From NCBI GenBank assembly GCA_037137395.1, contig JBAXKK010000002.1, positions 43,213 to 107,212 on the forward strand: a stretch of 64,000 bases of DNA, written 5' to 3'. The notes beneath the pieces are model-generated. The model saw nothing but the letters and a program-made list of their open reading frames with translations, had not been told where the DNA came from and did not search any database. This document shows, in pieces, positions 9,097 through 59,889 of the stretch (position 1 is its first letter; every line of letters begins with the position of its first letter). This DNA is from Elusimicrobiota bacterium. GTDB taxonomy: Bacteria > Elusimicrobiota > Elusimicrobia > Elusimicrobiales > UBA9959. A program made the position numbers and the translations under genes.

Positions 9097-9248
9097 GCCA
9101 TATGCCATAAGCTATAGGCCATACGCGGAAAGTACAATTATACGCCTTAAGCTTTATCGTATTATGAAGCGCATCATTGAAAGTCCTTTTACTACTTAAA
9201 TTTTAAGTTTCTGCGTATGGCCTATAGCGTATAGCTTATGGCAATAGC
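9097..9248. repeat. Inverted heptamer arrays, GCCATAN family
   Basis: gccataagctataggccatacgcggaa ... ttctgcgtatggcctatagcgtatagcttatggc. A perfect hairpin aggacagcgc-taaa-gcgctgtcct precedes it at 9073-9096. Confidence 0.8.
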
Positions 9249-9277
9249 AATAACCACACTAACTACAGGACCAAATT

Positions 9278-10615
9278 ATGTTCATCGCCAACACTCAAAA
9301 AGACCGCGAGGAGATGCTCCGAACCATCGGCGTTTCCTCCATTAAAGACCTCTTAAAACAGGTCCCAGAAAAATTCCTATACCCCGCCTTTAGCCTTCCG
9401 GAGACCTCTCTCGACGAGCAGCAGACCGCGCGCCGCATGAAAACTCTCGCCGCGGCTAACACGGCGCACCTAAGCTTCCTGGGCGCCGGCGCCTACGAAC
9501 GCTACATCCCCGCGGCGGTAAAGTCCCTCATCTCAAGGGGCGAATATCTTACCGCTTACACCCCATATCAGGCCGAAGCCAGCCAGGGCATACTGCAGAC
9601 CATATATGAATACCAGAGTTCAGTCTGCGCTCTTTACGCCATGGACTGCGCCAACGCTTCAATGTACGACGGAGCCAGCGCTTTCGGCGAGGCCGTGCGC
9701 GCAGCGGTTCGCATCACCGGCAAAAAAAAAGTGCTCTGCCAGGAAACCCTCAACCCTCAGTACCTGACTACGCTTAAAACCTATTTTTCCAATTCCAGCG
9801 ATTACCAGTTCATCACCATACCTGCCAGGGATGGTATTATGGACGCCGATAAGTTGGCTGTCCTCCTGGGCCCGGACACGGCCTGCGTGGCCTTCCAGAC
9901 ACCAAACTTCTTCGGCCTTATGGAAGACGCGCCGAAGATCTCGGAGATGGCGCATAAAACCGGCGCGCTTGTGGTGGCTGCGGCAGATCCGGCCAGCCTG
10001 GGCCTGTTTATCCCTCCGGGCGACTACGGGGCGGACTTCGCGGTTGGTGAAGGCCAGAGCCTCGGACTTCCTTTAAGCTACGGCGGCCCTTATCTCGGAA
10101 TTTTCGCGTGCAAAAAAGAATATGTGCGCCAGATGCCAGGCAGAATAGCCGGCATGACAAAAGATAAGGACGGCAAGCGCGGCTTCGTGCTTACCCTCCA
10201 GGCCAGGGAACAGCACATACGACGTGACAAGGCGGCTTCCAATATCTGTTCCAATGAAGCCCTCTGCGCTTTAAGCGCCACCATCTACCTGGCGCTCCTC
10301 GGTCCGGAAGGTCTGAAGGAACTGGCGCGCGCCAACGCCGCAGCCGCGGCTTTCACGGCGGAGAAGCTCTCCGGAGTAAAAGGCGCAAAGCTCAAGTTTA
10401 ACGGGACATTCTTCAATGAGTTCGTGCTGGAAATTAAAGGCGACGCCGCGGAACTCAGGGAGAAAGTGCTGATAAAGGAACATATAGACATCGGGCTGCC
10501 GCTCAAAGACCTTTACCCCGCCCTCGGCCCCGGCGCGCTGCTAGTATGCGCCACCGAGACCAAGACCGAAGCGGATATACTCAGGCTTGTGAAAGCGCTG
10601 GGAGAGAACATATGA
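9278..10615 (+). CDS. gcvPA: Glycine dehydrogenase subunit 1
   Basis: FLGAGAY, TAYTPYQAEASQG, NASMYDGASA and REQHIRRDKAASNICSN. Confidence 0.95.
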   Translation: MFIANTQKDREEMLRTIGVSSIKDLLKQVPEKFLYPAFSLPETSLDEQQTARRMKTLAAANTAHLSFLGAGAYERYIPAAVKSLISRGEYLTAYTPYQAEASQGILQTIYEYQSSVCALYAMDCANASMYDGASAFGEAVRAAVRITGKKKVLCQETLNPQYLTTLKTYFSNSSDYQFITIPARDGIMDADKLAVLLGPDTACVAFQTPNFFGLMEDAPKISEMAHKTGALVVAAADPASLGLFIPPGDYGADFAVGEGQSLGLPLSYGGPYLGIFACKKEYVRQMPGRIAGMTKDKDGKRGFVLTLQAREQHIRRDKAASNICSNEALCALSATIYLALLGPEGLKELARANAAAAAFTAEKLSGVKGAKLKFNGTFFNEFVLEIKGDAAELREKVLIKEHIDIGLPLKDLYPALGPGALLVCATETKTEADILRLVKALGENI

Positions 10616-12063
10616 ACGATATAACAAAACTCGATAACCGCTTAAGCATTGAAAGATCCGATCCGGGCCGGCGGGCCGTCAGATTTAATAATCTGCTGAA
10701 AGCAAAAGAGGCCCTCCCCGCCGGGCTGGCCAGAAAAGCCCCCCCGAAACTTCCGGAGCTTTCGGAATTAGACGTGGTGCGCCATTACACCGGACTTTCA
10801 AAAATTAACTTTTCGGTAGACACCCACTTTTATCCGCTGGGTTCCTGCACCATGAAGTACAATCCGAAGATCAACGAAGAGGCGGCGGCCCTGGAAGGTT
10901 TCGCAAATCTTCATCCGCTGGCTCACGACAAAACCTCGCAAGGCACGCTTGAGATGCTCTATGATCTGGAAAAACGCCTTTGCGCCCTGTGCGCGATGGA
11001 CGCCTTCACCCTCCAGCCGGCCGCCGGCGCGCACAGCGAATTTACCGGCCTGCTGATAGCCAAAGCCTACTTTGCTAAGAGAGGCGAAGATCAGCGCGTG
11101 GATATAATTTGTCCCGACTCCGCTCACGGCACCAACCCGGCCACAGCATCCATGCTGGGTTTCAACACGATAAACATCAAATCCGGTCCCGACGGCCGGG
11201 TAGACCCGGCAGACCTTAAAGCGCACCTGGGCGACAAGACAGCCGTGCTCATGCTGACCGTGCCCAACACGCTGGGGATCTTTGAGTCCCGCATAGAAGA
11301 AATAGCCGAAATGGCTCACAAAGCCGGCGCGCTCGTCTATATGGACGGGGCAAATTTCAACGCTCTGATCGGTATTGTGAAGCCGGGAGATCTAGGCGTA
11401 GATATTATGCACATCAACGCTCATAAAACCTTTTCCACACCGCACGGCGGAGGCGGACCAGGAGCGGGCGGCATCGGCGTCAAGCGGAGACTGGAGGAAT
11501 TTTTGCCGGTGCCCCGCGTGAGACTGGAAGACGGAATCTACCGGACCGATTTCTGCTGTCCGGATTCCATTGGCAAAGTAAAGGCTTTCTTCGGCAATGT
11601 GGGAGTGCTGACACGCGCCTACGCCTACTTGTTAATGCACTCGAAAAAGGAACTGGCCCAAATATCGGAAAACGCCATACTTAACGCCAATTATATGAAG
11701 AGCCGTCTTCAGAATATTTATCCGGCACACTCAGGCGACTACTGCATGCATGAGTGCGTCCTTACCCCTCCTGCGGCGCTGGCGGCCAAAGGACTGAAGA
11801 CCCTTGATATCGCCAAACGGCTGCTGGATTACGGATTTCACGCGCCGACAATCTACTTCCCGCTGATCGTACACGAAGCGATAATGATTGAACCCACCGA
11901 GACCGAATCCAGAGAAACCATGGACTCCTTCATAGAAACCATGCTCATAATAAACAACGAGGGCGCCGCGAACCCGCAGTTGCTGAAAGACGCGCCCCAC
12001 ACAATGCCGGTAAAACGACTGGACGAGGTTCAGGCCGCCAGGCAGCCAAATTTGCGGTGGTAA
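10612..12063 (+). CDS. gcvPB: Glycine dehydrogenase subunit 2
   Basis: YPLGSCTMKYNP and PLP-Lys motif HKTFSTPHGGGGPG. ATGA-coupled to gcvPA. Confidence 0.95.
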   Translation: MNDITKLDNRLSIERSDPGRRAVRFNNLLKAKEALPAGLARKAPPKLPELSELDVVRHYTGLSKINFSVDTHFYPLGSCTMKYNPKINEEAAALEGFANLHPLAHDKTSQGTLEMLYDLEKRLCALCAMDAFTLQPAAGAHSEFTGLLIAKAYFAKRGEDQRVDIICPDSAHGTNPATASMLGFNTINIKSGPDGRVDPADLKAHLGDKTAVLMLTVPNTLGIFESRIEEIAEMAHKAGALVYMDGANFNALIGIVKPGDLGVDIMHINAHKTFSTPHGGGGPGAGGIGVKRRLEEFLPVPRVRLEDGIYRTDFCCPDSIGKVKAFFGNVGVLTRAYAYLLMHSKKELAQISENAILNANYMKSRLQNIYPAHSGDYCMHECVLTPPAALAAKGLKTLDIAKRLLDYGFHAPTIYFPLIVHEAIMIEPTETESRETMDSFIETMLIINNEGAANPQLLKDAPHTMPVKRLDEVQAARQPNLRW

Positions 12064-12080
12064 GTAAGGGCGCCGCGCCC

Positions 12081-12185
12081 GCCATTAGCCATATGCTCTA
12101 GGCCATACGCAGAAACACTGTTAGTTGCCATAAGCATTCACTTCTAAACTTTTCTGCAAATGGCAAATGGCCAACGGCTTACAGC
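12081..12185. repeat. Inverted heptamer arrays, GCCATAN family
   Basis: gccattagccatatgctctaggccatacgcagaaa ... tttctgcaaatggcaaatggccaacggc. Confidence 0.7.
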
Positions 12186-12196
12186 AACAACGTAAT

Positions 12197-12895
12197 ATGA
12201 CTGAAGGCCTTATAATCGAAACTCATCCGCTCGACGCTTATCAACAAATGGCGGCGGATGAAGTCCTTTGCGACGCGCTGCTTTCCCCTTACACCCTGCG
12301 CTTTTACAACTGGAGCGGGCCGGCCGTAACCTTCGGATATTCACAGCGTATCTTATCGGTGCGCTCTGCGGTCGGCCCTGAGAAGGTCACCTGGCCCATG
12401 ACGCGCCGGCCTACCGGCGGCGGGATCGTCTTACATGAAAGCGATCTCACCTTCTCCTTCATCTTCCACCAGCCCGGAGCTTATTTCGAGCCGGCAAAAA
12501 CATATGACCGCCTGCACCGCGCCATAACCGGTGGCTACGCGGGAGCGGGAATCAGTTTTGATTTGCTTAAAGAAAACACCATTGACTACAAAACCAACAA
12601 CCCCGTAATGGACTGCTTCGCTAAGCCGGTAAATCTGGATATTATGTATAATAAGAAAAAAGTGCTTGGAGGAGCCCTGCGAAAATTCGGAGACTATATG
12701 CTTTATCAGGCTTCTTTTCAGGCTCCGGACGCAAGAAGCAAAGCGGCTTTTCACAGGGATATAATTGTTAACGCCTTTGGCCTGGAATTTGGCCTTTCGT
12801 GGCGCGGCGCCGAATTTTCAGATCGGGAAACGGATAAAGTAAAAGCCCTCGCGCTCACGAAGTACGCGTCCAGGGAATGGAACGAGCGGATATAA
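12197..12895 (+). CDS. Lipoate-protein ligase / octanoyltransferase (LplA/LipM family)
   Basis: MAADE, LRFYNW, RRPTGGG.VLH and KKVLGGA. Lies next to the gcv genes. Confidence 0.85.
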   Translation: MTEGLIIETHPLDAYQQMAADEVLCDALLSPYTLRFYNWSGPAVTFGYSQRILSVRSAVGPEKVTWPMTRRPTGGGIVLHESDLTFSFIFHQPGAYFEPAKTYDRLHRAITGGYAGAGISFDLLKENTIDYKTNNPVMDCFAKPVNLDIMYNKKKVLGGALRKFGDYMLYQASFQAPDARSKAAFHRDIIVNAFGLEFGLSWRGAEFSDRETDKVKALALTKYASREWNERI

Positions 12896-12900
12896 CAGCA

Positions 12901-12976
12901 ATGGCGAGTGATTAGTAACTAGTGGCGAGAAAGAAACCCCTTTACCAACAGCCACACGCTACTCACTGACCACTAG
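12901..12976. repeat. Inverted heptamer arrays, AGTGRYT/AGTGGCG family
   Basis: tggcgagtgattagtaactagtggcgag ... cacgctactcactgaccactag. Confidence 0.7.
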
Positions 12977-13006
12977 ACGATAGCGAAGTCCCAAGGAGAA
13001 AAACTT

Positions 13007-13237
13007 ATGATCGCATTCGTATTATGCAAACTGGTAGCCGGTCTTGAGCAGAAGGCCGTGCAACAAATAAAGAGCGTGCGCGGCGTAAAAGACGTATACC
13101 TGACCTTCGGCGGCTGGGACGCCGTCCTTGTGACGGAATCCGACACCATAGACAAACTCAGCGGCCTGATAGTGCGCGAGGTCCGCGGGATACATGGCGT
13201 GCAGACGACCGAAACCCTGGTCACAACCAACTTATAA
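13007..13237 (+). CDS. Stand-alone Lrp/AsnC ligand-binding domain protein
   Basis: 76 aa with GVKDVYLTFGGWD and VRGIHGVQTTETL. SD AAGGAG upstream; no HTH. Confidence 0.85.
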   Translation: MIAFVLCKLVAGLEQKAVQQIKSVRGVKDVYLTFGGWDAVLVTESDTIDKLSGLIVREVRGIHGVQTTETLVTTNL

Positions 13238-13279
13238 CCGCTAAAAATATTATTAAATTATCCCCAGAGGTAACATAAA

Positions 13280-13694
13280 ATGGAAAATTCCGGTTTCTCT
13301 AATCCTGCCGACAAACTCATACTGATAGCGGACGATGACGAGTCTGTCAGAGAACTCATTGAGTGCGTGGTGAAGAAAGAAGGCTTCAAGGTGGAGAAAG
13401 CCGGGGATGGTGAGGAAGCCCTTCAGAAAGCCCGGCAGGTTCATCCAGACCTCATCTTGTTGGATCTCATGATGCCAAAAATTCGGAGGGTTTGAGACGC
13501 TCCGCGAACTCCAGAGCGATGAAACCACCAGCATCCCAATAATTATCATTACCGGCCGTTACACAGATAGATCAACCTCGGAAATGATAAAACAGGAACC
13601 CAATGTCGTGGAATTTATTGAGAAACCTGTAAAGCCCCACGCTCTGACCGCGGCATTGCATAAAGTTCTAAAGACCCGGCCGATTCAAAAATAA
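13280..13694 (+). pseudogene. Response regulator receiver split by a one-base insertion
   Basis: ILIADDD...LLDLMMPK. Removing one A from the A5 run at 13477-13481 continues as FGGFETLRELQ...IPIIIITG...FIEKPV to a TAA at 13692-13694. Confidence 0.8.
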
Positions 13695-13719
13695 TATACC
13701 ATCTGACAGGATTGTCATC

Positions 13720-14412
13720 TTGAGTAAGGTAATGCTAGCCCTGCTGATTTCCCCACTGACCGCGGCTACGGCTTTCGCCACGGCCGCTCTGGCGTGTTCC
13801 GCCCTGGCGCGCCTTCAGGCAGCCCTCCCTCTTCTGCTGGGGGCGGCCCTTTACTGTCCTCTGCACTTCTATCTACCCCGAAACCGATTTTTTTATGTCC
13901 TCTCCCACGAATTAAGCCACGCTCTCGCGGCTTTGGCCAGCGGTGTTAAAGTGAGGAGGATAAACATCGGCAGGACCGGCGGCTTTGTGACATTGAACGC
14001 CACTAACGCGTTCATCTCGCTGGCGCCATATTTCATCCCTTTCTACGCGCTCGCGGCAGGGTTGACATACTGGCTGGCGGCCTATTTTTGCGATATGTCG
14101 CCCTACAGATCCGTTTTTATCGGCGCCACCGGTTTTTTTCTGACTTTCCATCTACTGAACACCGGCGACATTCTGACCGGGCCCGTACAGAGCGACCTAA
14201 AAAAGGCCGGGGGAGTTTTTTTTTCCGTCTCCATGGTGCTGCTGCTCAACAGCCTGTGCCTGGCCCTGGCGCTAAAAATGATATTTCCGGACCTCGTCTC
14301 GCTTAAGAGTTACGCCGCAGGAGTTTATAATGTGACCGGAGTTATAACCGGCTGGTTGTTCGCGGCCGCGTCTTACCTCTTTAATACTGCTAAAATATAT
14401 CTGCGTTCATGA
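13720..14412 (+). CDS. Membrane protein with an HExxH motif (M50B-like metallopeptidase)
   Basis: HELSH, ISLAPY and QSDL motifs; multiple TM helices. Confidence 0.7.
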   Translation: MSKVMLALLISPLTAATAFATAALACSALARLQAALPLLLGAALYCPLHFYLPRNRFFYVLSHELSHALAALASGVKVRRINIGRTGGFVTLNATNAFISLAPYFIPFYALAAGLTYWLAAYFCDMSPYRSVFIGATGFFLTFHLLNTGDILTGPVQSDLKKAGGVFFSVSMVLLLNSLCLALALKMIFPDLVSLKSYAAGVYNVTGVITGWLFAAASYLFNTAKIYLRS

Positions 14413-16613: not shown

Positions 16614-16614
16614 T

Positions 16615-17211: not shown

Positions 17212-17292
17212 GAAAAGCACAGAATTAGGACCAGAAGGCGGGAGAATTAACCATTTAGGGAAACTCCTTCCGGTTTCCTAATCCTCCGACTT

Positions 17293-18074: not shown

Positions 18075-18095
18075 CTAAAAAAGGACACATAATAT

Positions 18096-19286: not shown

Positions 19287-19298
19287 ATAAAAATCGGC

Positions 19299-19339
19299 AA
19301 TAAAAAAACGGCGGGGAATATTCCCGCCGTTTTTTATTT
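19299..19339. terminator. Bidirectional intrinsic terminator
   Basis: AAAAAAACGGCGGG...CCCGCCGTTTTTT between convergent genes. Confidence 0.85.
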
Positions 19340-19357
19340 GACCCCTTCAAGATCCGA

Positions 19358-19729: not shown

Positions 19730-19799
19730 TTATCTCCGAATCCGGCTCCCGCGCTTTTCATCAGGTGGTATTCTGGTGAGGCTTTCAGGCGTATAAAAA

Positions 19800-19871
19800 T
19801 GCCGCGAGTTGGGATCGAACCAACGACACCTGGTTTTTCAGACCAGTGCTCTACCACTGAGCTACCGCGGC
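19800..19871 (-). tRNA. tRNA-Phe (GAA), CCA not encoded
   Basis: Reverse complement GCCGCGGTAGCTCAGTGGTAGAGCACTGGTCT-GAA-AAACCAGGTGTCGTTGGTTCGATCCCAACTCGCGGCA folds into a cloverleaf. Confidence 0.96.
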
Positions 19872-19947
19872 ACCTGTGGTAATTCTACATTGATAATATT
19901 AGCATTTTTAGCAAAAGAGATTAAGGGTTCCGGACAAAAATCTTGTT

Positions 19948-22310: not shown

Positions 22311-22318
22311 GAAAAACC

Positions 22319-22396
22319 GCCATAGGCCTTAAGCCATACGCCATAAGCAGAGCGGCTGCCAAGGTATAATATGGCCTAAAGCATACGGCATATGGC
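22319..22396. repeat. Inverted heptamer arrays, GCCATAN family
   Basis: gccatag gccttaa gccatac gccataa gc ... atggcctaaagcatacggcatatggc. Confidence 0.8.
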
Positions 22397-22988: not shown

Positions 22989-23136
22989 AGCCTCGCCTAT
23001 AACAAGTGTTAATGGCGAGTGAAAGCCGCAGTAATTAATGGATAATGGCTGGGCACGGAAGTATCCGGAACTGCCGCGCTGTCTTACTGCCGTACTGTCA
23101 CACTGACGACTAAGCTGTATCAAGGAGAATATAAAT

Positions 23137-25585: not shown

Positions 25586-25592
25586 AAAACGC

Positions 25593-25676
25593 AAACAGTG
25601 AAACGTAAAGAGTAAAGAGTTATAAGACATGAACTTTTTGCTCTTTACGATTTACGATTCCCGCTTTACGCTCTTT
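25593..25676. repeat. Inverted heptamer arrays, GTAAAGA/TTTACGN family
   Basis: gtgaaac gtaaaga gtaaaga g ... ctctttacgatttacgattcccgctttacgc. Overlaps the last codons of the Mo-subunit gene. Confidence 0.65.
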
Positions 25677-27987: not shown

Positions 27988-28066
27988 TTTTCAGGTTACA
28001 GGGGTCAGGTTTCAGGCTACAGATAAAAAATTCCGCCTGCTACCTGCCACCTGTTACCTGGCGCCT
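27988..28066. repeat. Inverted heptamer arrays, CAGGNNN/ACCTGNN family
   Basis: tttcaggttacaggggtcaggtttcaggctacag ... cctgctacctgccacctgttacctgg. Confidence 0.75.
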
Positions 28067-30295: not shown

Positions 30296-30401
30296 AATTC
30301 AAGATTCAAGATTCAAGAGATGCCAGCAATTTTTAATCCGCACTTTTAAACTTCAAATCCTTAGTCCCAAATCTTCAATCTGGAATCTTGAATCTTCAAT
30401 C
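30296..30401. repeat. Inverted heptamer arrays, ATTCAAG/CTTGAAT family
   Basis: attcaag attcaag attcaag ... atcttcaatctggaatcttgaatcttcaat. Confidence 0.8.
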
Positions 30402-32287: not shown

Positions 32288-34576
32288 TTATTTTTTCTTA
32301 AGCCCGCCCCAAACCTTTTCAGGCAGGATGGGAACGCTTTTCACCCTGACACCGGAAGCGTTCCTGACCGCGTTTGCGATAGCCGGGGCCACGCCAATTA
32401 AGGGGACTTCGCCCATGCCTTTAGCCTTATACGGGCCTTCGGCATAGGGCTTCTCTATAAAAGTTATATCATATTCCGGTTTGTCGGCGGTAGTGGCCAT
32501 CACGTAGTCGGTGAAATTAGGATTGAGCATGATGCCGTTCTTGTACAGCAGGTTCTCATAAACGGCCCAGCTCATGCCCTGCAGTATGCCGCCCTGCGCC
32601 TGGCCCTCCGCGAGTCTCGGGTTTATGATCTTGCCTACGTCATATGCCGCGCAGATCTTAAGCACCCTGGTCACGCCTGTCTTCAGGTCCACCTCAACCT
32701 CCGCCACATCTGCGGAGTAGGAATAAGTCACGTAGGCGTCGCCCTGACCGTCGCCCATGTTGTAAGAGGTGTGCGGCGACACATACCAGCCCTGCTCGCC
32801 CATTTTCATGCGGAGGTTCCAGCATTCTTTAACAACTTCGGCAAAAGTAACCGACACTTCGCCTATATAGAAGACGCCCTGGAAGGCGCTCATGGGTTTA
32901 GAGCCTTCAGCGCCCTTGGCCAAAAGAAGATTAAAAGCGGTCTTAAAGATGTTCGCCCTCATCGGCGCGGCGGCTTCTATGATGGCGTTGCCGCTCATCA
33001 GAGTGGTACGGCTTGCCACGGTGGGGCCGGAGTCCGACACCTTGGAAGTATCCACTTCCTCCAGTTTTATATTCTCATAAGGGGCGTTAAGGGTCTCGGC
33101 ACAGATCTGGCTGAGCACGGTCAAGGCGCCCTGACCCATCTCTGCGTTGCCGACATTTACTCCGACGGTAGCGTCTTTATAAATATTGACATACGCGCCG
33201 GCTCGGTCAAGGTAACGCCCTTTGGCGCCAAGGCCCACGCCGTAATACGCCACGGAAACGCCCATGCCCCTCACAACATCACCTTTAGACTTCAGCATTA
33301 AGCCTTCAGCCTTTCGACTGTCCCAGCCGGATTTATTCTTCACGGTTTCAAGAAGCTCTTCAAGCCCGCAGGAAGCCCCGATTATCTGACCGGTGGCGGT
33401 TTTATCTCCAGTGCGCAGAATGTTTTTCATGCGCAGCGCTACCGGATCAATTTTCAGCTTGTGCGCCAATTCATCCACCAGCGATTCCTGCGCGAAACAG
33501 ATCTGCGGCTGCCCGAAACCGCGGAAAGCGCCGCAAGGCACCTTATTGGTGGCCGCGGCATAGGCTTCTATGCGGATATTATCTATCTTGTAAGGCCCGG
33601 CGGCGTGCACTGCGCCCCGCCAGAGAACTATTGGTGACAGGGTGGCGTAAGCGCCCCCGTCCAGAACATATTTCACCACGCAGCCGGTGATCTTCCCGCT
33701 CTTGTCGGCAGCATACGTAACCTTGGACCACGACGGATGCCTCTTGGACATGGAGTTAAAATCTTCTTTGCGGTCGTAAATGAGTTTGACCGGACGGCCG
33801 GTCTTAAGGGCGCACAGGGCCGCGTGCGCCGCCACAAGCGCCGGGACATCTTCTTTGCCTCCAAAACCGCCGCCGGTCACGGTTTGTATGACCTTCACTT
33901 TGTGATAGCCAAGGCTGGCGGCGGCCGCGACTCCGTCGAGAACATAGAACGGACACTGGGTGGAACTGTATATGGTCAGGCCGCCGTCGGATTCCGGAAC
34001 GGCGACAACGCCCTGGGTTTCAAGATAAGCGTGAACCTGGTAATTAGTGGTAAATTCATCTTCCACCACGGCATAAGCTTCTTTAATGGCTTTATCCGGG
34101 TCGCCTTTCTTAATGATAAATTTGGCAAAAATATTGTCGTCGCCGTGAAGTTTTATTGACTTTTTTTCCAGAGACTTCAGCGGGTCCTCGATGAACGGGA
34201 GTTCTTTATACTTCAGCTCCATAAGCCGGGCCGCTTTCTTAGCGGCATTTTGAGTCTCCGCCACCGCAAGCGCCACGGTTTCGCCCTGAAACCGCGCTTC
34301 CTTCTCAGGCAGAAAAGGATAATCGTTCACTACCAGCGGCCATTTATTTACGCCTCGCACGTCCTTGTATGTAACTAAAGTCACATAGCCGGGAACTTGC
34401 CGGGCTTTGGCGTCGGAAATGGACAGGATTTTTATGCGGGGTTTTGGGCAACGCACAGCTGCCGCGTACAGCATACCGGAGAATTCCTGATCGGCGGCGT
34501 ATTTAGCCCGTCCAGTCGCCTTTATAAGCGCGTCTTTCCTGGGCAATGATTTTCCTACATAAGAAAGGTTATCCAT
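32288..34576 (-). CDS. Xanthine dehydrogenase molybdopterin-binding subunit (XdhA/PucD-like)
   Basis: HAYLE, STQCPF, GGGFGGKE, AFRGFG.PQ, GPTVASR and AKGMGE. Confidence 0.93.
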   Translation of the reverse strand: MDNLSYVGKSLPRKDALIKATGRAKYAADQEFSGMLYAAAVRCPKPRIKILSISDAKARQVPGYVTLVTYKDVRGVNKWPLVVNDYPFLPEKEARFQGETVALAVAETQNAAKKAARLMELKYKELPFIEDPLKSLEKKSIKLHGDDNIFAKFIIKKGDPDKAIKEAYAVVEDEFTTNYQVHAYLETQGVVAVPESDGGLTIYSSTQCPFYVLDGVAAAASLGYHKVKVIQTVTGGGFGGKEDVPALVAAHAALCALKTGRPVKLIYDRKEDFNSMSKRHPSWSKVTYAADKSGKITGCVVKYVLDGGAYATLSPIVLWRGAVHAAGPYKIDNIRIEAYAAATNKVPCGAFRGFGQPQICFAQESLVDELAHKLKIDPVALRMKNILRTGDKTATGQIIGASCGLEELLETVKNKSGWDSRKAEGLMLKSKGDVVRGMGVSVAYYGVGLGAKGRYLDRAGAYVNIYKDATVGVNVGNAEMGQGALTVLSQICAETLNAPYENIKLEEVDTSKVSDSGPTVASRTTLMSGNAIIEAAAPMRANIFKTAFNLLLAKGAEGSKPMSAFQGVFYIGEVSVTFAEVVKECWNLRMKMGEQGWYVSPHTSYNMGDGQGDAYVTYSYSADVAEVEVDLKTGVTRVLKICAAYDVGKIINPRLAEGQAQGGILQGMSWAVYENLLYKNGIMLNPNFTDYVMATTADKPEYDITFIEKPYAEGPYKAKGMGEVPLIGVAPAIANAVRNASGVRVKSVPILPEKVWGGLKKK

Positions 34577-34615
34577 AAATTTACCCGCTATATCTAAAAC
34601 GGAAAGAAAGTTGCT

Positions 34616-35452
34616 TTACCCTTTCCGCTTCCCGTTTTCCGCTTTACGACTTTCCGCCACCCTCATATGCTTGCCGTCTTTTTTGTAATGCAGCATTATT
34701 ATCTGGGCCATCACCGAAACTGCTATCTCGCCAGGCGTCTTGCCGCCCAGATTGAGACCGATGGGCGAATAAACCCGCTTGTCCTTGAGCGGATAAAGCT
34801 TTTTCTTACCTGCCAGACGGAATATTTCCCGCACTTTATCGGCGCTGCCTATCATTCCGATATAAGCCGCCTTTGTCCGCATAACCGCTTCAAGGCATTC
34901 CCTGTCCAGGGCGTGGCCCCGCGTGACAATGACCGCATAGGTATTCTCGTCCACTCCGGCGCGTGCTACGGCTTCATGCGGCCTTTCAAGAATGATATCG
35001 GAGGCGTGTGGGAATCTTTCTTTGTTGGCGAATTCCGGCCTATCGTCGGCGACAAGGTACGGGTAGCCGGCCATATCCGCGGCAGCGGCTATCTTCATTC
35101 CCACATGGCCCGCGCCCAGTATCAATATTTTAAGCGGGCTCTTGTATACATCTATAAATATTTCCACGCGGCCCATGCATATCATGCCGGTATTGCCTTT
35201 GGGTTTGAGGTCGAAAACAAATTTGCCCCCGACGCCTTTCTTAATGCAGGCCACGGCCTGTTTTATCGCCAGAGCCTCCAGGGTCCCCCCGCCGACCGTA
35301 CCCTCTATAGAACCGTTCTCGAACACCAGCATTTTGGCGCCGGCCTCGCGCGGTGTGGAACCATCCACGTCAATGACGATCACGAAAGCGGCGTTCTTCC
35401 CTCCGTCCACCGCTTCGCCCAGCATTTTGATAAGATTCCTGGATTCCTTCAT
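34616..35452 (-). CDS. XdhC/CoxI Moco-insertion accessory protein
   Basis: GSTPREAGAKM, GTVGGG.LE, GAGHVG, VTRGH..D, YIGMIGS and PIGL..GG.TP.EIA. Confidence 0.92.
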   Translation of the reverse strand: MKESRNLIKMLGEAVDGGKNAAFVIVIDVDGSTPREAGAKMLVFENGSIEGTVGGGTLEALAIKQAVACIKKGVGGKFVFDLKPKGNTGMICMGRVEIFIDVYKSPLKILILGAGHVGMKIAAAADMAGYPYLVADDRPEFANKERFPHASDIILERPHEAVARAGVDENTYAVIVTRGHALDRECLEAVMRTKAAYIGMIGSADKVREIFRLAGKKKLYPLKDKRVYSPIGLNLGGKTPGEIAVSVMAQIIMLHYKKDGKHMRVAESRKAENGKRKG

Positions 35453-35979
35453 TATTTCACCACCCACTCGTCAATTTTTTTATCCGTGCCGTACTCAACG
35501 ATCTCAACCGCGGCTGAATCCTTTCCCAGGGCTTTAGCCCAATCGTTGGCCACTATCTTCACCAATTGTTCCTGCTGGGATCTTTCAAGGCTATTGAAAC
35601 GCTGATCCACATAAACACGCAGCGCGTCATCCTTATAACCGATATCATCCACGCCCAGATTACTCAGCTCGCCAGCCCCTTTTTCCTTTATCGCCCGTAT
35701 CAGTCCGTCTTTTACATCATTAGTGATTGCGCCTGTTTTAACCGGCGCGTCCGGCACTTTGGCGGAAAACGAACTATCCACAAGCTTGCCGGTTATGGCA
35801 AGAGAAAGAATCACAAAGAGTATTTTTAATCGCGGCGAGCTTTTTTTTTCAACTTTCAGAGACTTCGGTCCAGCGTTGAGCTTCACACCGTATGACGGGC
35901 ACATATTCGCGTTCCCGCGCGCTTGCAATAAAGCCCTGTAATACCTGTTAATACCGCCCATACTCGTCACCTCACTCAT
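35452..35979 (-). CDS. Hypothetical single-pass membrane protein
   Basis: One TM helix; TAATG-coupled to the XdhC gene. Confidence 0.6.
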   Translation of the reverse strand: MSEVTSMGGINRYYRALLQARGNANMCPSYGVKLNAGPKSLKVEKKSSPRLKILFVILSLAITGKLVDSSFSAKVPDAPVKTGAITNDVKDGLIRAIKEKGAGELSNLGVDDIGYKDDALRVYVDQRFNSLERSQQEQLVKIVANDWAKALGKDSAAVEIVEYGTDKKIDEWVVK

Positions 35980-36020
35980 GTTGTAATCGTAGAATCCAGA
36001 ATATTATATAACTTATGTGA

Positions 36021-37250: not shown

Positions 37251-37325
37251 AATGTAGCGCGATAGCACGACAGCAAGATGGCACGTCAGATAGCAACGAG
37301 ATTTTAAGTCAGGCGGATTTACTAC

Positions 37326-38015
37326 CTACCAGTTGCGACCAAGTAGTTGTTGGTACTCCTCTGGCGTGTCAAAATCGCGGATAACACCTGCATCTGCCAC
37401 CACGAGATCCAGAACTTTCACCGACTGGTGATGCGTGACCCAATGCAGGCCCTTGTCATTGGGGCCTTCAAAACAAAGCTGAAAATATTTTCGCGGAATA
37501 ATTATTGGATGCCCGCGTTTGAAGGAAAGAGGATTAACGCCAGCTGGAGGCACCACGCTATCTTGCTGTCGTACTGTCTTGCTGTCGTACTGTCCTGCTG
37601 TCGCGCTTTCCGGGGCCTCGTCACGCCGGCACTTGGGAATAACAAGGAAATCTCTGCTGGATCGCCAAAAATCGGCTATCAGTTTATAGGTTTCCGGCTT
37701 TATTAGGGGCTGGTCAACCAGACAGATCATCACGGCTTCGGACCGGTAACTGACAAGTTTAAGGGCCGCCCTGACCGAAGCTATCTGCCCCAATTCCGGA
37801 GTCTCATTGAAAGCAACTCTTATCTCACCGGGGTTCCAGGCGGCAAGAACTTCCGCGCGGCTGGCGCCGAGAACAACAATAGTCTCCGTTACGCCCGCGG
37901 CATTGACTCCCGCGCAGACCGATTCCAGAAAATTACGCCCGTCATACTCAAGCAGCGCTTTTGTCCGCCCCATTCTGGAGGAATCCCCACCGGCCAGCAC
38001 TAAAGCGCTTATCAT
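37326..38015 (-). CDS. Molybdenum cofactor cytidylyltransferase (MocA-like) with a ~35 aa repeat-containing insertion
   Basis: LAGGDSSRMG.TKALL, LVDQP, RGHP and DFDTPEEY. Confidence 0.85.
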   Translation of the reverse strand: MISALVLAGGDSSRMGRTKALLEYDGRNFLESVCAGVNAAGVTETIVVLGASRAEVLAAWNPGEIRVAFNETPELGQIASVRAALKLVSYRSEAVMICLVDQPLIKPETYKLIADFWRSSRDFLVIPKCRRDEAPESATAGQYDSKTVRQQDSVVPPAGVNPLSFKRGHPIIIPRKYFQLCFEGPNDKGLHWVTHHQSVKVLDLVVADAGVIRDFDTPEEYQQLLGRNW

Positions 38016-40467: not shown

Positions 40468-40559
40468 GGGCTGTTTGATGAGCATAGCTCTTGATACGGC
40501 ACCGGCATAGCCTGGGCCGTTTGATGAGCATAGCTCTTGATACGGCACCGGCATAGCCT
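40468..40559 (+). repeat. Two tandem 46-bp direct repeats in the operon leader
   Basis: GGGC(T/C)GTTTGATGAGCATAGCTCTTGATACGGCACCGGCATAGCCT x2 with one mismatch. Confidence 0.9.
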
Positions 40560-40569
40560 GGAGAAAAAT

Positions 40570-47499: not shown

Positions 47500-47505
47500 A
47501 TAAAA

Positions 47506-47606
47506 AGTGGTTAGTGACTAGTGGCGAGTGTCAGTATTTGCAATCCAAATGTGAAGATAGCTGTCATGAAGAATACCCGAACCGACCGCTGTCCACTATA
47601 ACGCTT
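47506..47606. repeat. Inverted heptamer arrays, AGTGRYT family
   Basis: agtggtt agtgact agtggcg agtgtc agt, with a degenerate reverse arm. Confidence 0.6.
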
Positions 47607-48103: not shown

Positions 48104-48117
48104 TATTTTTCTCCTTT

Positions 48118-50387: not shown

Positions 50388-50465
50388 ATTTCTCCCTGAA
50401 ACTGCACAATATTTATGCCTGCACTTTACACTTTTAACAACATCCCCTATCCCTTAAGGAACTAT

Positions 50466-51998: not shown

Positions 51999-52074
51999 AA
52001 ACACCTCCTCCTTGAATCCCGTAGTTCTCTTTTTTCACACTGCTTTGCTGTAACACTTATCTGATCTCACACTA

Positions 52075-52653: not shown

Positions 52654-52665
52654 AACATTAGATCC

Positions 52666-53379
52666 TTAAAATGAACCAAAATAGATGTACCGCGCCCAGA
52701 GTCCCAATAGCGAGGTCATAACAAGACTCAGTAGAATATTGGTGAGCGACAAGTCCATAATCCGCTTCCAGCGGATATAGAAAAGCTGGACTGCCCAGGC
52801 CGCAGCGAACGGCAGCCACCACCAACCGGCCGTAAAAAAGAAGGACCACAGGACAATGCGCTCGAAAATCAGGAAGTATTTCTCGTCGGAGCTGGGGTAT
52901 TCACTGCCGAAGAGGTCTTTTTCCACAAAATAAACCATCACCGTAGTAACATGCGTGACCAGGACGAAGATAGAGGCTATCCCCACCCATTTCTCCGCCA
53001 TAAAAAAGCCGCTGCCAGTCGCGAATATAGGCGAGATCATGAAAAGGACATAGACATGCAGGAACTGATCTATAATGATGCTGACGGTGCCGTCCCGGTA
53101 GCCCAGCCGCTTCATGCCGTAGATGCGCAGTTCGTCTATGATGAAATGAAAAACCAGCATCAGGCCAAGGGCCGTCCATCCGGTCACCGCAACCGGGCCG
53201 AGAGAGAACCAGACATCGCCCAGATAATTATAAGCAAGCGCGACGGAAACGACAAAATGCGTCAGGCAGTGCAGAAGCATCCCCCCGACATGCTGGCGCT
53301 TAAGTTTGTTGACGACATTAAACTGCAGCGTAAAATCAGCCAGCAGATGAGAAAGAAGAAGTCTCCAGAATATTACCAT
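52666..53379 (-). CDS. DUF3307 membrane protein
   Basis: HLLADF.LQ, LLH..H, HFIID, DQFLH and ER motif; multiple TM helices. Confidence 0.8.
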   Translation of the reverse strand: MVIFWRLLLSHLLADFTLQFNVVNKLKRQHVGGMLLHCLTHFVVSVALAYNYLGDVWFSLGPVAVTGWTALGLMLVFHFIIDELRIYGMKRLGYRDGTVSIIIDQFLHVYVLFMISPIFATGSGFFMAEKWVGIASIFVLVTHVTTVMVYFVEKDLFGSEYPSSDEKYFLIFERIVLWSFFFTAGWWWLPFAAAWAVQLFYIRWKRIMDLSLTNILLSLVMTSLLGLWARYIYFGSF

Positions 53380-53389
53380 GATGTTTCCT

Positions 53390-55549: not shown

Positions 55550-55594
55550 AAAAACCTCTCTCTCAATTGAAACAGCATTAATCTAACTGCGCCC

Positions 55595-57640
55595 TTAAGC
55601 CGGCAGCGTGAGCACGAATCTGCTGCCGCCGGACGGGACGGCTTCCGCGTGTATCTTTCCTTTATGCATCTCTACTATTTTTTTCGCGATGGCTAGCCCC
55701 AGGCCAAAGCCCTGTTCCGTGCCCTCTACCCCATTCAACTGTTTATACTTTTCAAAAATGGCTTCGCGTTGCCCTTCGGGAATACCGGGGCCGGTATCCT
55801 CAATATTAAAAACCACCAGACCAGCTTCGGCCCCGGCGCGCATTGAGACGGTGCCGCCGGAAGGCGTGAATTTATAGGCGTTCGAAAGTATATTTTCCAG
55901 CACCCGCCGAAGCAGCCGTTCGTCGCCCTTGAAGGTCAGGTTTGAAGCGGCGGCAGAATCAAGCCTGAATTTTACGCCTTTCTCATCAAACAACGCCTTG
56001 AAACTTTCAAAAACAGCGGCGGCAATTTTTTCGGCGTCTATGGGCGCGATATGCGGCTTGAGGTTGCCCGCCTCCATCCGCGCGATATCAAGAATATTTT
56101 CAAGCATCTCAAAAAGACGAGTGCTGGAATCCTTTATGTTGGAAAGGTACCCCGCATTTTTCTCGGTTGCGGCGCAGGAATGCTCCAGTAGTTTAATATA
56201 GCCCTGCATGGTCAAAAGCGGGGCGCGCAGATCATGGGCGACCGCGTGAAAAAAGTCCTCTTTCATGCGCTGCATTTCCTGTTCAAGGGTAACATCCCTT
56301 AGCACCATAAAAATGCCGGGGCTGCTGGTCTTGGGCGAAAGCACCTGCATACTCATGCGATAATATTTTTTTCGGCCGCGGGATCCGGCCAGTTCGATGA
56401 TCTCGCCGGGCGTGTTAGCTTTAAGTTTGACCAGTCCGGACACCCTGCGCCTGAGTACTTCATTTTCCGGCTCCAGCTTCTCATCCTTCTTAACGCCCAG
56501 GAGGCCGCGCGCGGCGGCGTTGGCATAGAGAAGTTCGCCTCTGAAATCGCTAAGTATGATGGAGTCGTGGATAAGACCTATAAGGAGGTCAACCTTCTGC
56601 TTCTCCTCCAGCATCTTCTCCACCTGCAGGCCGTGATACCGGTCCACCTCGGTCATCATGGCGTTGAAAGATCTTAAAAGAGCCGACATCTCGGTGATGT
56701 CCGCGTCCTCGTTTACCGGCTGCTTGAAATTCAGGTCCGCCACGCGGCGGGCGCCTTCAATAAGCCCGCTTACCGGATTTATCAGCCTCCGGCTCAGGAT
56801 GAGGGCGGAAAAATAAAACACCGTGGATATGCCCAGCAGGAAGAAAGCTATCAGGGAGGTTATGAGATTTATGCCTTTAAAAGCTTCCCAGCGGTCCTGG
56901 AGAGTCAGGGCATAAAGTTCAAAATCCGGGACTTCCGAGTAGGAGGCCAGGTAATAATTTCCTCCAGTGCCGGCAAGCTCACGGGAACTTTTGACGGTGC
57001 CGGAAAAAAGGCGCTTAAGGCCCTCGCGGCTTACTGGCTGAGTCTCGCCGCGAAGCGAGAATACCCGTCCTTCCGGGTCTGCGATGAACACGCCGCCTGT
57101 CCGCCCCATCTTCTGCATCTCAAGCTTAACCATCAAATCTCTCAGATTGATCACGGCAAAAGCGTAATGTCCGCTTTCCATGGGGTATACCAGACGGCAG
57201 ATGGGCAGGTTGTAGATAAGTTCAAACCCTCCCAGCTGGGAGTGGCCGGTTTTTGCCGCCTTTTTGAATAAAGGGTCCCGTGACAGATCCACATAGCCGA
57301 AAAGACGTTTTATTTCCGGCGTGCCCGCGCTGAACACCTGCCGTCCGTCCGGACCGGTGAAAGCCATGAACAGGAATTCCGGATTACGGGCGAGAGTTTT
57401 TTTAAGATTGGACGCGGTGATATAATCGGTACCCGGCTCCCACATGTTATAGAGCCGGCGGTCCAGCTCATCGGTCTTCTGGCTTATCATCAGCGAAGCC
57501 ATCTGTGCGATATTCTCGTGCAGGTTCTGAACATTGCTCTTAGCCACGGACTGGTAATAAAAAAGGAAACCGGCCGTCGGGATGATGGGGATCAGTCCGG
57601 TGCCAAAGATAATAAGTAATAATCGGTTAAATAAAGTCAT
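55595..57640 (-). CDS. Membrane sensor histidine kinase (Cache-HAMP-PAS-HisKA-HATPase)
   Basis: AHDLRAPL, NILSNAYKF, DTGPGI and GFGLGLAI; two TM helices. Confidence 0.92.
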   Translation of the reverse strand: MTLFNRLLLIIFGTGLIPIIPTAGFLFYYQSVAKSNVQNLHENIAQMASLMISQKTDELDRRLYNMWEPGTDYITASNLKKTLARNPEFLFMAFTGPDGRQVFSAGTPEIKRLFGYVDLSRDPLFKKAAKTGHSQLGGFELIYNLPICRLVYPMESGHYAFAVINLRDLMVKLEMQKMGRTGGVFIADPEGRVFSLRGETQPVSREGLKRLFSGTVKSSRELAGTGGNYYLASYSEVPDFELYALTLQDRWEAFKGINLITSLIAFFLLGISTVFYFSALILSRRLINPVSGLIEGARRVADLNFKQPVNEDADITEMSALLRSFNAMMTEVDRYHGLQVEKMLEEKQKVDLLIGLIHDSIILSDFRGELLYANAAARGLLGVKKDEKLEPENEVLRRRVSGLVKLKANTPGEIIELAGSRGRKKYYRMSMQVLSPKTSSPGIFMVLRDVTLEQEMQRMKEDFFHAVAHDLRAPLLTMQGYIKLLEHSCAATEKNAGYLSNIKDSSTRLFEMLENILDIARMEAGNLKPHIAPIDAEKIAAAVFESFKALFDEKGVKFRLDSAAASNLTFKGDERLLRRVLENILSNAYKFTPSGGTVSMRAGAEAGLVVFNIEDTGPGIPEGQREAIFEKYKQLNGVEGTEQGFGLGLAIAKKIVEMHKGKIHAEAVPSGGSRFVLTLPA

Positions 57641-57648
57641 AATAAAAC

Positions 57649-57745
57649 AGTGGTTAGTGATCAGTGGCGAGTAAAAAAGACAATGTTAAATATTAGTTAG
57701 CGGCAAAATTAAAATCCCTCACTAACCACTATTCACTAATCACTT
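57649..57745. repeat. Inverted heptamer arrays, AGTGRYT family
   Basis: agtggtt agtgatc agtggcg agt ... ctcactaaccactattcactaatcact. Confidence 0.8.
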
Positions 57746-58936
57746 CTTCTTGAGCGCTTCTATAAGTTTCGGCGCTATCTCGTGCGCGTCGCCGACTACT
57801 CCGTATTTAGCCACGCCAAAGATCGGGGCGTTGGGGTCCTTGTTCACGGCCACGATCACATCCGACGACTTCATACCCACGATGTGCTGCACGGCTCCAG
57901 ATATCCCGAAAGACAGATACAGCTTCGGGGAAACAGTGGCACCGCTCTGCCCCACCTGGTGCGACTTATCCTTTAAGCCCAGGTCCACGGCCGCGCGCGA
58001 CGCGCCGACCACTCCGCCCAACAGGCGGCTGAGCTCTTCAAGAACCTTAAACTTCTCTTTGGTCTTCATGCCGCGGCCGCCGGACACTATGATCTTAGCG
58101 TCCTCTATCTTCACGCCGCCCTTGTCGCGGATCAGATGCCGCTCAAGGACTTTCACGCGCCGCAGGTTTTTGTCAATCTTGATATCTTCCCTTACTGTCA
58201 TGGCGACTTTGCCATAGATGGGTTCGGCCAGTTTCATGACGTTCGGACGGACGGTAGCCATCTGGGGCCGGGAGTTGGGGCTCAGGATGTCGGCCATGAT
58301 GTTCCCCCCGAAAGCTGGACGGGATTGAAGCAGGAGGCCGTCCTTTATGGCGAGGGCCGTGCAGTCGGCCGTGAGGCCGGTGTAAAGGCAGGAAGCCACT
58401 CTGGGGGCGAGGTCGCGGCCCATTATGGTGGCGCCGTAAAGCATGGCGGCGGGCTTATGCTTGTTGACGAGGGCTATTATGGCGGTTGCGAAAATATCCG
58501 TATTGTATTCGTATAGCTCCGGGTTTTCCGCCAGGTACATTTTATCGGCGCCGTAAGCTCCAAGCTCTTTTTCAAAGCCGTAATTTTTATCGGTCAGCAG
58601 AACGGCTGACAGATCTTCGCCCAGTTCGTCGGCGAGCCTGCGTCCGACTGACAGAAGCTCAAAGGTGACCGGCTTTATCCGTGGGCGCTTCGCATCATCA
58701 GGACTCTCCATAAGTTCCACGAAAACCCACACGCCCTTGTATCCGGAAAGATCCCGAGCCGAGGCCTCTTCCCGCGTTATCTCTATCGCGCTCACCGGGC
58801 AGACCTGCACGCAGGCGCCGCACAAAGTGCAGGCTTCGTTGATGACGGCCTTTTTATCGATCAGTTGGATGGCCGCAAAAGGGCAGACCGGCACGCATTT
58901 GTTGCAGCCTATACACTTTGGCGAAACATTTATCAT
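57740..58936 (-). CDS. etfA: Electron transfer flavoprotein alpha subunit with an N-terminal 2x[4Fe-4S] ferredoxin
   Basis: CIGCNKC...CP and CTLCGAC...CP; GLTADCT, RPAFGGN, QVGQSG and GISGAVQH. Confidence 0.93.
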   Translation of the reverse strand: MINVSPKCIGCNKCVPVCPFAAIQLIDKKAVINEACTLCGACVQVCPVSAIEITREEASARDLSGYKGVWVFVELMESPDDAKRPRIKPVTFELLSVGRRLADELGEDLSAVLLTDKNYGFEKELGAYGADKMYLAENPELYEYNTDIFATAIIALVNKHKPAAMLYGATIMGRDLAPRVASCLYTGLTADCTALAIKDGLLLQSRPAFGGNIMADILSPNSRPQMATVRPNVMKLAEPIYGKVAMTVREDIKIDKNLRRVKVLERHLIRDKGGVKIEDAKIIVSGGRGMKTKEKFKVLEELSRLLGGVVGASRAAVDLGLKDKSHQVGQSGATVSPKLYLSFGISGAVQHIVGMKSSDVIVAVNKDPNAPIFGVAKYGVVGDAHEIAPKLIEALKKK

Positions 58937-58980
58937 TGTCAATCTCCTAAAAAGTTCAAAAACTATCTCCGCGGCCCGCG

Positions 58981-59772
58981 CTACTCCGCGATGAAATGCT
59001 CTTTGCGCATGATCTCCAAAATTTTCTCTACGGCCTCCTGAGCGCTTCCGTTTGTCATCAAAGCTTTCCCGCGCTGAGGAGGCGGGTATATTTTAGCCAC
59101 CTGCGTGGGCGAACCCTTGAGCCCCAAGTACTGCGTCTCCGCGCCGATGTCCGAGGCTGACCAGACATAGTACGGCTTTTTCAAAGAGGCGTGCGTTTCC
59201 AAAAACGAGGGATACCGCGGAACATAATCCTTGGGCATGATCATAGTGAACAGGACAGGGGCTTTGACCTCCACCACCTCATATCCGCCGTCTATAAGTT
59301 TGCGGGCGATAATTTTCTTGCCGTCAACTTCAATATTTTCGCAGAAAGTCACCTGGGGGATGCCCAGCTGCTGCGCCACTCCGGGGCCGGTCTGGGCGGT
59401 GTCTCCGTCGATAGCCTGCATTCCGGCAAGGACAATATCCGCCTTGCCCAGCTTTTTCACGGCCTTGGCGAGGGCGTAGGAAGTGGCCCAGGTGTCCGAA
59501 CCGGCAAAAGCCATGTCGGACAGAAGCACGCCGTCGTCTGCGCCGAGCGCCAGGCCCATCTGGACCACGCTCTTTGCCTGGGGCGGCCCCATGGAGATGA
59601 CGGTAACGCGGCATCCGTGGACCCGCTTGAGCTCCATCGCCGTCTGAAGCGCGAAATGGTCGTAAGGGTTGATGATGCTGGGCACCCCCGTCCTGATGAG
59701 CGTGCCTGTTTCCGGATTGATCTTAACTTCCGTTGTGTCCGGCACCTGTTTAACGCATACGGCTATGTGCAT
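58981..59772 (-). CDS. etfB: Electron transfer flavoprotein beta subunit
   Basis: VCVKQVPD, INPYD, FAGSDTWATS, DGDTAQTGP and GLKGSPT.V. Confidence 0.95.
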   Translation of the reverse strand: MHIAVCVKQVPDTTEVKINPETGTLIRTGVPSIINPYDHFALQTAMELKRVHGCRVTVISMGPPQAKSVVQMGLALGADDGVLLSDMAFAGSDTWATSYALAKAVKKLGKADIVLAGMQAIDGDTAQTGPGVAQQLGIPQVTFCENIEVDGKKIIARKLIDGGYEVVEVKAPVLFTMIMPKDYVPRYPSFLETHASLKKPYYVWSASDIGAETQYLGLKGSPTQVAKIYPPPQRGKALMTNGSAQEAVEKILEIMRKEHFIAE

Positions 59773-59889
59773 AAACGATCTCCTTAAAATTACAGTGCAG
59801 AGTCTAAAGTCCGGAGTCTGCAGGCAAGATGCTTAGAGTAAACCCGGACTTTTCAAGCTATAGACTCATGACTATCCACCCAACGCTTC

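Follow-up and report, generated by a model that had tools for sequence, protein, structure and literature searches.

Introduction

Repetitive extragenic palindromic sequences (REP and REPIN) with their REP-associated tyrosine transposases (RAYT), and miniature inverted-repeat transposable elements (MITE), are short multicopy intergenic hairpins that also have a gene-bearing form with the same repeats. In Coxiella burnetii, the intervening sequence (IVS) of helix 45 has terminal inverted repeats, a stem of ~28 bp with GACAGAT heptamers in the 5' arm and an S23p open reading frame (ORF) in the loop, and its horizontal acquisition has been proposed (PMC4990558). Tandem heptamers have also been described between genes. 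The GGGAATC repeats of Xanthomonas and GGGGAYT repeats of Nostoc are intergenic arrays of about four units, located mostly between aligned ORFs and rarely between divergent ones; repeats of the Xanthomonas type form 70-75 convergent inverted pairs per genome, and between Xcc and Xac their positions are fairly stable (90 %; Rehm et al. 2015, PMC4692102). Geobacter metallireducens has paired tandem hepta- and octanucleotides, presented as "putative global regulator binding sites" (PMC2700814), and the TAACTGA repeats of Beggiatoaceae, cyanobacteria and Bacteroidetes lie just upstream of start codons, overlap ORF ends and are patchily distributed (PMC4679880). Statements on these four papers, here and below, refer to parts of their texts. 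The present paper concerns inverted arrays of 7-bp units at gene junctions in a 64,000-nucleotide stretch of DNA (here called the window; contig JBAXKK010000002.1 of assembly GCA_037137395.1) from an Elusimicrobiota bacterium. A sequence-only reading of the window had listed thirteen such sites and proposed that they may be empty landing sites or scars of a small-cassette insertion system, or register-shifting mRNA stems. On balance, it seems likely that the window arrays are gene-less, non-autonomous copies of a cassette carrying a four-helix-bundle gene (S23p/TIGR02436), moved by a word-reading protein together with a host enzyme and overwriting the slots behind stop codons.

The window elements belong to the inverted-heptamer kind known from Xanthomonas and Geobacter, with 3-5 tandem heptamers in intergenic, convergent inverted pairs, and they resemble gene-less relatives of the Coxiella IVS without being rRNA IVSs: all window sites lie between protein genes and none in 23S rRNA. 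With the Coxiella IVS they share terminal inverted repeats whose tandem heptamers form a stem (PMC4990558); they differ in being located at mRNA junctions, in hundreds of copies, in several word families and nearly always without an ORF. The Xanthomonas and Nostoc repeats have one G-rich word per genome and were studied as G-quadruplexes, no cassette gene being discussed in the text cited (PMC4692102), whereas the commonest units of the genome studied here have no GGG, which occurs only in the AGGGTNN family. Positions are also fairly stable in Xanthomonas, in contrast to the exchange of families between sister genomes observed here. Geobacter shares with our genome several classes per genome, 3-5 units, opposite-strand pairs and variable distance, but its arrays were read as regulator sites, with class 1 tied to ISGme8/9 insertions and no four-helix-bundle link in the text cited (PMC2700814). 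The TAACTGA repeats are direct and a translational role was proposed for them; inverted partners and a cargo gene are not described in the part cited (PMC4679880). A published link of heptamer arms to four-helix-bundle genes outside rRNA was not found in a search that most subscription journals and the Geobacter supplement lay outside.

With REP/REPIN-RAYT systems and MITEs the elements share a pairing like that of autonomous and non-autonomous forms, and like MITEs they are short, non-coding and multicopy with inverted ends. They differ from REP/REPIN-RAYT in that tandem heptamers make up the arms, no transposase family matches the cargo protein and the Y1_Tnp genes present do not have these arms. 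Neither are the cassette proteins Avd modules of diversity-generating retroelements (DGR), as they score 32-40 bits on NF033474 (cut-off 80) and the DGR-like locus of the genome is separate from them.

Materials and methods

The source genome (G000, 2.7 Mb) is an incomplete assembly of 174 contigs, which are given C numbers. Other genomes have G numbers, G001 being the sister and G004 a member of the same genus, and individual loci have L numbers. Gene positions are those of a crude in-house caller (2376 genes, 88 % coding) and gene names were taken from Pfam. Each listed site was tested by comparing its best inverted pair of period-7 arms with 60 base shuffles of that site. The control for the genome-wide detector was a partner reversed but not complemented, and that for intergenic DNA 10 dinucleotide shuffles of the segments.

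The protein tree contains 65 four-helix-bundle proteins; it is based on few columns and has many open forks, and one G021 row, which carries a wrong junction label, was excluded from claims. A metagenome sample of relatives of the G004 protein comprised 47 loci, of which 41 were analysed, six fragments being left out; 32 of them were non-duplicates besides the query.

Results

The inverted period-7 arrays are real. The genome-wide scan called for by the sequence-only reading gave 182 elements in G000 and 25 in the control, whereas the counts were 84 and 88 for period 5, 72 and 75 for period 6, and 13 and 4, a small excess, for period 8. The 182 copies obtained by strict calling became 277 when calling was relaxed. 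An element was present in 167 of 1327 intergenic segments and in none of them in each of the 10 dinucleotide shuffles. Chance and assembly artefacts were ruled out by these controls and shuffles and by the same design in many separate genomes, and as several families occur on one contig, the contamination figure of 7.7 % does not explain the arrays.

The arms have median lengths of 30 and 31 bp (~4-5 units) and are separated by a spacer with a median of 30 bp (10-90 % range 9-67 bp). As had been noted from the window, period and geometry are constant while the unit varies, and at least seven word families coexist in G000, GCGTAAA, AGGATTA, GCCATAN, AGATTCA and AGTGRYT being the commonest units. 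The polarity is fixed: the unit of the first arm contains AG without CT in 132 of the 182 elements and CT without AG in four. The elements were located between co-oriented genes in 148 cases, between convergent genes in 15 and between divergent genes in 8, with 7 within ORFs and 4 at contig edges. Among junctions of 50-300 bp, 143 of 879 co-oriented, 13 of 119 convergent and 3 of 131 divergent ones were occupied. As convergent and co-oriented junctions are occupied similarly (p 0.14) and divergent ones rarely, the common factor is an upstream stop codon and not the operon. In the sense of transcription, arm 1 starts a median of 5 nt past the stop codon, overlapping the ORF end in 38 of 148 cases, and arm 2 ends a median of 20 nt ahead of the next start codon.

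The sequence-only reading had suggested that similar arrays flank small four-helix-bundle genes, and this was confirmed in the source genome itself. An intact TIGR02436 gene is located on contig C76, inside an operon and between GCGTAAA arms. Of 23 candidate genes flanked by arms, it was the only one for which the AG-first arms do not belong to closed empty elements. The protein is a homologue of the pentamer Xcc0516 (2gsc, E 1e-30), and from this likeness the cassette protein is likely a pentameric ring. In the control set, a TIGR02436 match was obtained in Bacteroides thetaiotaomicron. The S23p/TIGR02436 family was present in 25 of the 61 genomes searched, and 65 four-helix-bundle genes were recovered from 70 loci of G000 and its relatives, both arms being called for 37 of them. 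Filled cassettes were co-oriented with their neighbours in 41 of the 42 cases in which both neighbours were assigned. The cassette gene is under purifying selection, with a ratio of nonsynonymous to synonymous substitution of 0.05-0.17 in six of nine pairs, the other three being saturated. Of the genomes with a strong gene match, 13 of 20 had elements in the loci sampled, compared to 1 of 10 of those without, in small samples of related genomes. The empty elements are very probably akin to the four-helix-bundle cassette. An association with GxxExxY genes, which had also been suggested, did not hold; no G000 gene was over the cut-off, and one weak match below it was outside any tested element.

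Two decayed cassettes were found in G000. In C4:24627-24846, 21 codons are left between AGGGTAT arms, and C8:18542-18678 has the 3' half of the gene with its stop codon directly behind a large gene, followed by an octamer arm, which ties octamer arrays to the same cassette. The second arm of C4:24627-24846 is read in frame and forms part of the signal-peptide-like start of the next gene. In L035 (G008) and L044 (G032), an intact four-helix-bundle gene is fused in frame via an arm to the downstream protein.

Supported clades in the protein tree had the same arm word at different junctions and in different genomes, and at some junctions proteins of more than one clade were found. The clade words are AGGCTGA/AGGCGAA (G004, G012, G007), AGGCCAT (G001, G016), AGACGGT (two G038 copies), AGTGGTS, AGAAGYC and AGTCACA. 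Protein identity and word match were correlated (rho 0.15, p 0.002 with 500 permutations, 37 genes). In a forward test with metagenome relatives of the G004 protein (54-68 % identical), 15 of 17 armed loci had a word agreeing with AGGCTGA at 6-7 of its 7 positions, compared to 2 of 36 in the background. Four-helix-bundle cassettes were also observed in CRISPR-like arrays (L434, L436, L439, L441, L444, L445, L447, L449, L451, L467, L472). There the repeat preceding the cassette is truncated at the 3' end, a full repeat usually follows it, and empty copies occupy spacer slots too. In the CRISPR array of L436, an empty copy adjoins a filled one and has the same 5' end.

It could be argued that the arrays are period-7 microsatellites formed by replication slippage and inverted by local template switching, with the small gene merely a passenger. 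Some arms are indeed expanded to 8-14 units, and unit number is reported to vary in the Coxiella IVS (PMC4990558) and in cyanobacteria (PMC4679880). However, the second arm of an element does not copy the first, the polarity is fixed, the word follows the protein clade across hosts and whole junctions are replaced by another family, all of which makes slippage a very improbable explanation.

Small genes had been expected between the arms in relatives at the junctions occupied in the window. Such an insert was found at the junction between the 2Fe-2S gene and xdh (27988), where the gap in G004 is 404 bp and contains a four-helix-bundle gene with AGGCTGA arms; G004 was the only one of 16 relatives with a filled junction, G001 having another family and G002 an 8-bp gap. 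At the four junctions named for comparison the expectation failed, with gene-sized gaps in 0 of 29 relatives for gcvH-gcvPA, 0 of 28 for rbr-tpx, 0 of 29 for yajQ-hutI and 0 of 28 for etfA-kinase. The long gaps seen in two cases (L114, L116) at the FAD-2Fe-2S junction were rejected, as they stem from a paralogue match at 23 % identity and are not inserts. In the window itself, no S23p/TIGR02436 ORF was found between the arms of any of the 13 sites. If the arrays were pre-existing att-like landing sites, with the gene inserted between the arms, repeated filling of the same junction could be expected, and some junctions have been filled repeatedly, by proteins of different clades; several junctions filled in relatives also carry an empty element in G000. 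However, the arm family of G000 differs from that of the filled relative at five detector-called junctions and at window 27988, and this difference in word argues against landing sites. The arms travel with the gene, their word tracking the protein clade across sites, and 3 of 17 junctions filled in relatives are tight (≤9 bp) in G000. The idea of empty landing sites is thus scarcely credible.

Several arm families have a common palindromic centre, TAAGGA-NN-TCCTTA. All 17 near-exact sites in G000 were beside arrays, as is 23 % of intergenic DNA. The centre was present in 13 of 51 genomes, with as many as 39 copies in one genome. Of the 37 genomes in which both the centre and the gene family were looked for, it was found in 13 of 23 with a match to the family and in none of the 14 without. 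Outside this group of genomes, a wider scan of contigs gave at least 120 loci matching the centre; 7 of these had clear heptamer arms, the two with a named source being Elusimicrobia, and the remainder looked like chance matches. The centre joins arms of different words and occurs in both orientations relative to the mRNA (7:4 in G000), which points to a step at the DNA level. In G008 and G019, near-identical gene-less copies with an asymmetric centre are present at many junctions and in both directions; these have likely spread as units, and we consider it probable that empty elements spread independently.

The word "scars" is appropriate for a few of the elements, i.e. the two decayed G000 cassettes, and probably not for most. 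Were each empty element a full cassette that had lost its gene, immobile thereafter, the decayed cassettes, the variable length and sequence of the spacers and the empty copy next to a filled one in L436 would all be accounted for. However, only one of 154 spacers of at least 30 bp in G000 contained a gene remnant (shuffles give 0-1), and the near-identical centred copies at many G008 and G019 junctions do not fit loss of genes in place. Empty copies also occur in both mRNA orientations, whereas filled cassettes are almost always co-oriented. Scars as the only origin of the empty elements are therefore unlikely.

The occupants of the junctions vary between relatives. Several other arm words, non-homologous hairpins or a 5-bp gap were found at gcvH-gcvPA in 29 relatives, and the remaining window junctions were likewise variable, with other families, hairpins and short gaps; gaps of <45 bp were present in 5-23 of 16-29 relatives, depending on the junction. 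In G001, the genes of which are 92 % identical at the nucleotide level, another family or a replaced junction was found at gcvPB-lplA, rbr-tpx, 2Fe-2S-xdh, 30296 and XdhC. Junction identity between G000 and G001 had a median of 0.44 for flagged junctions (n=11) and 0.79 for the others (n=14, of which two have low values on other grounds; p 0.046). The swaps are sharply bounded, and in three of five cases the last ~10 codons were also replaced; as swaps take in terminal codons, the XdhC tail is derived from the element. Allele swap by long homologous tracts from distant donors was rejected, since genes show almost their usual identity to G001 at more than ~33 nt from swapped junctions (0.86-0.93, n=5). 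In relatives, the same slots behind stop codons are also occupied by hairpins, either REP-like or long and GC-rich, and by inverted arrays of 9-mers (L195, L197, L204, L170, L236, L142-L154). In G001:C72, the orthologue of window 35961-36020, the junction has an extra ORF of ~430 bp, without called heptamer arms.

The elements must form hairpins in mRNA, with stems of a median of 24 bp. Selection for these structures, as sites for RNase III or other processing or as register-shifting switches tuning operon expression, would agree with the predominance of co-oriented junctions, with such stems, with the RNase III gene present in G000 and with the Coxiella IVS, in which RNase III cleaves the heptamer stem at its first repeat (PMC4990558). 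The sense strand also folds slightly better (83 of 143, p 0.017). However, there was no G-U bias (147 G-T and 136 A-C mismatches, p 0.55), an arm was no closer to its partner than to other members of the family (mean percentile 0.41, n=87) and a U-tail (at least 5 T in the 8 nt past arm 2) was present in 18 of 148 elements only; the elements do not conform to intrinsic terminators, in which a U-tract follows a short GC stem. These results, together with the turnover, make selected processing stems unlikely. Register shifting, as proposed in the sequence-only reading, has no support in the pairing statistics and is at odds with the turnover between sister species. Short gaps in many relatives at the same junctions, families swapped between sisters and convergent junctions occupied about as often as co-oriented ones further weaken an explanation by selected mRNA structures, which we regard as improbable.

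Of the thirteen sites listed from the window, nine were clear (0/60 shuffles each), those listed at 59795 and 17221 were borderline, that at 47506 had one good arm and that at 23010 is not an inverted heptamer pair. Twelve of the sites are between co-oriented genes, much as had been stated, the exception being the convergent glnA/xdh site listed at 25593. The overlap of arrays with final codons also held: the first arm of the GCGGAAA element at 34596..34660 (0/60) is the coding sequence for the XdhC tail AESRKAENGKRKG, followed by the stop, and the tails of xdh, etfA and the 2Fe-2S gene likewise enter arms. At the XdhC junction G001 and G016 have another tail and other arms.

Three clear sites have GCCATAN elements: gcvH–gcvPA (9097..9248, with arms at 9097-9126 and 9213-9242; 0/60, fold z -9.1), gcvPB–lplA (12081..12185; 0/60), where G001 has an AGGGTAN element instead, and the junction of the rubrerythrin and peroxiredoxin genes (rbr-tpx, 22319..22396; 0/60), with other families in G001, G016, G032, G019 and G010. 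Tiny palindromes occur in or beside GCCATAN arms (window 12069-12081 and 9075-9096; G000:C8 and C27; L151), the types being GGGCGCCGCGCCC and a CAGCGC-N4-GCGCTG hairpin. Three sites have AGTGRYT elements. The first, after lplA (12901..12976; 0/60), shows the common centre faintly at 12930 (score 2.0, which is below threshold). The second is situated between a sensor kinase gene and etfA, over the etfA stop codon (57649..57745; 0/60), and the third between yajQ and an amidohydrolase (hutI-like) gene (47504..47606; 8/60), one arm of the third being decayed. The convergent site has a GCGTAAA-family element over the xdh stop codon (25586..25672; 0/60), of the same family as the arms of the intact C76 cassette. 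The other clear sites are the junction of the 2Fe-2S gene with xdh, which has a CAGGTNN element (27988..28066; 0/60), and an ATTCAAG element (30297..30401; 0/60), at which the G001 junction was replaced along with the terminal codons.

The borderline sites are an AGTCTNN element between the acyl-CoA dehydrogenase gene and etfB (59791..59875; 1/60), with other families in relatives, and a degenerate element (17221..17290; 2/60), at the junction of which G016 has an AGGCTGA element. The site at 23010..23110 (48/60) is a broken composite of an AGTG-type left half and an octamer right half of the CTGTCGTA type. Arrays of this octamer or 16-mer family (CTGTCGTA / CTGTCTTG type) were seen in the window at 23070-23105, ~37290-37320 and 37561-37607, one of them within a MobA-like ORF. 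A weak period-7 run at 33282-33313, in a xanthine-dehydrogenase-like ORF and without a called partner arm, may be due to chance. Other features of the window are a 46-bp head-to-tail duplicate in an intergenic gap (40468-40561), also present in G001, a tRNA-Phe gene (19799-19872), the only Rfam match in the window, and 108-bp repeats of a Sel1-repeat protein (63431-64000).

Discussion

The spread of gene-less cassette copies that we favour could be brought about as follows. The putative ring protein, a pentamer, would recognise a different heptamer in each of its clades, with about one unit per subunit, the arms having ~4-5 units. It would bring a copy of any element with cognate arms, filled or empty, to a slot located at a stop codon or immediately ahead of it, and the arriving copy would overwrite what the slot contained before, the DNA-level step being performed by a host repair or recombination enzyme. 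Slippage and deletion would later erode arms and gene, and any cutting of the mRNA hairpin by RNase III would be a by-product and not the purpose. The chances that the cassette protein is a mobility or specificity factor appear to us evenly balanced.

Several observations weigh against this interpretation. By profile, the shared centre is present in 18 of the 182 elements, and none of the 13 window sites is above the threshold. No arm pair was called for 28 of the 65 four-helix-bundle genes. The cassette protein had no match to integrase, transposase or reverse-transcriptase families, other enzyme families not having been searched. The four Y1_Tnp genes and one reverse transcriptase of G000 are all more than 1.5 kb from heptamer elements. 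No target-site duplication was apparent by eye in the G000/G001 alignments, no clean pair of tight and occupied junctions from close strains being available. As these slots are also taken by unrelated palindromic repeats in relatives, the position may be a matter of tolerance rather than targeting. The 17 armed metagenome loci are not independent: about 10 belong to a single lineage lodged in CRISPR arrays and another seems to be the G012 locus, the remaining armed loci being at unrelated sites. The match of clade and word could arise by co-inheritance of gene and arms without any binding. With at least seven arm families and one intact gene in an incomplete assembly of G000, the cognate proteins would have to have been present formerly or to be unassembled.

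A RAYT or a reverse transcriptase as the partner of the elements was considered and rejected, no heptamer arms being found near either in G000. A Y1_Tnp (RAYT-like) gene at C17:9634-10276 (L275) has a REP-like palindrome of its own, present on its flanks in many copies. The DGR-like locus at C52:11795-13994 (L002, L277) has an Avd-like four-helix gene, a reverse transcriptase and AAC-rich repeats resembling template and variable repeats, and no heptamer arms.

About one in six mid-sized co-oriented junctions of G000 is occupied by these elements. Exchange of the occupants outpaces the divergence of the genes and in some cases includes the last codons of the upstream gene. If the cassette protein is a word-specific mobility factor, the S23p family and the bacterial heptamer repeats would become one testable system, for which GCGTAAA (G000:C76), AGGCTGA (G004, L049) and AGGCCAT (G001, L079) provide matched pairs of protein and word for binding and mobility tests; if it is not, the elements stay a known, unexplained class of repeats. 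We tentatively propose, as a possibility on the doubtful side, a class of mobile elements in which a catalytically bare pentameric ring protein reads a 7-base word and drives the copying of filled and gene-less cassettes over the slots at stop codons, rewriting C-termini and signal peptides. If such a class exists, the S23p protein would gain a function, the IVS of 23S rRNA would be a special case of it and the excess of heptamer repeats among bacteria would be explained.

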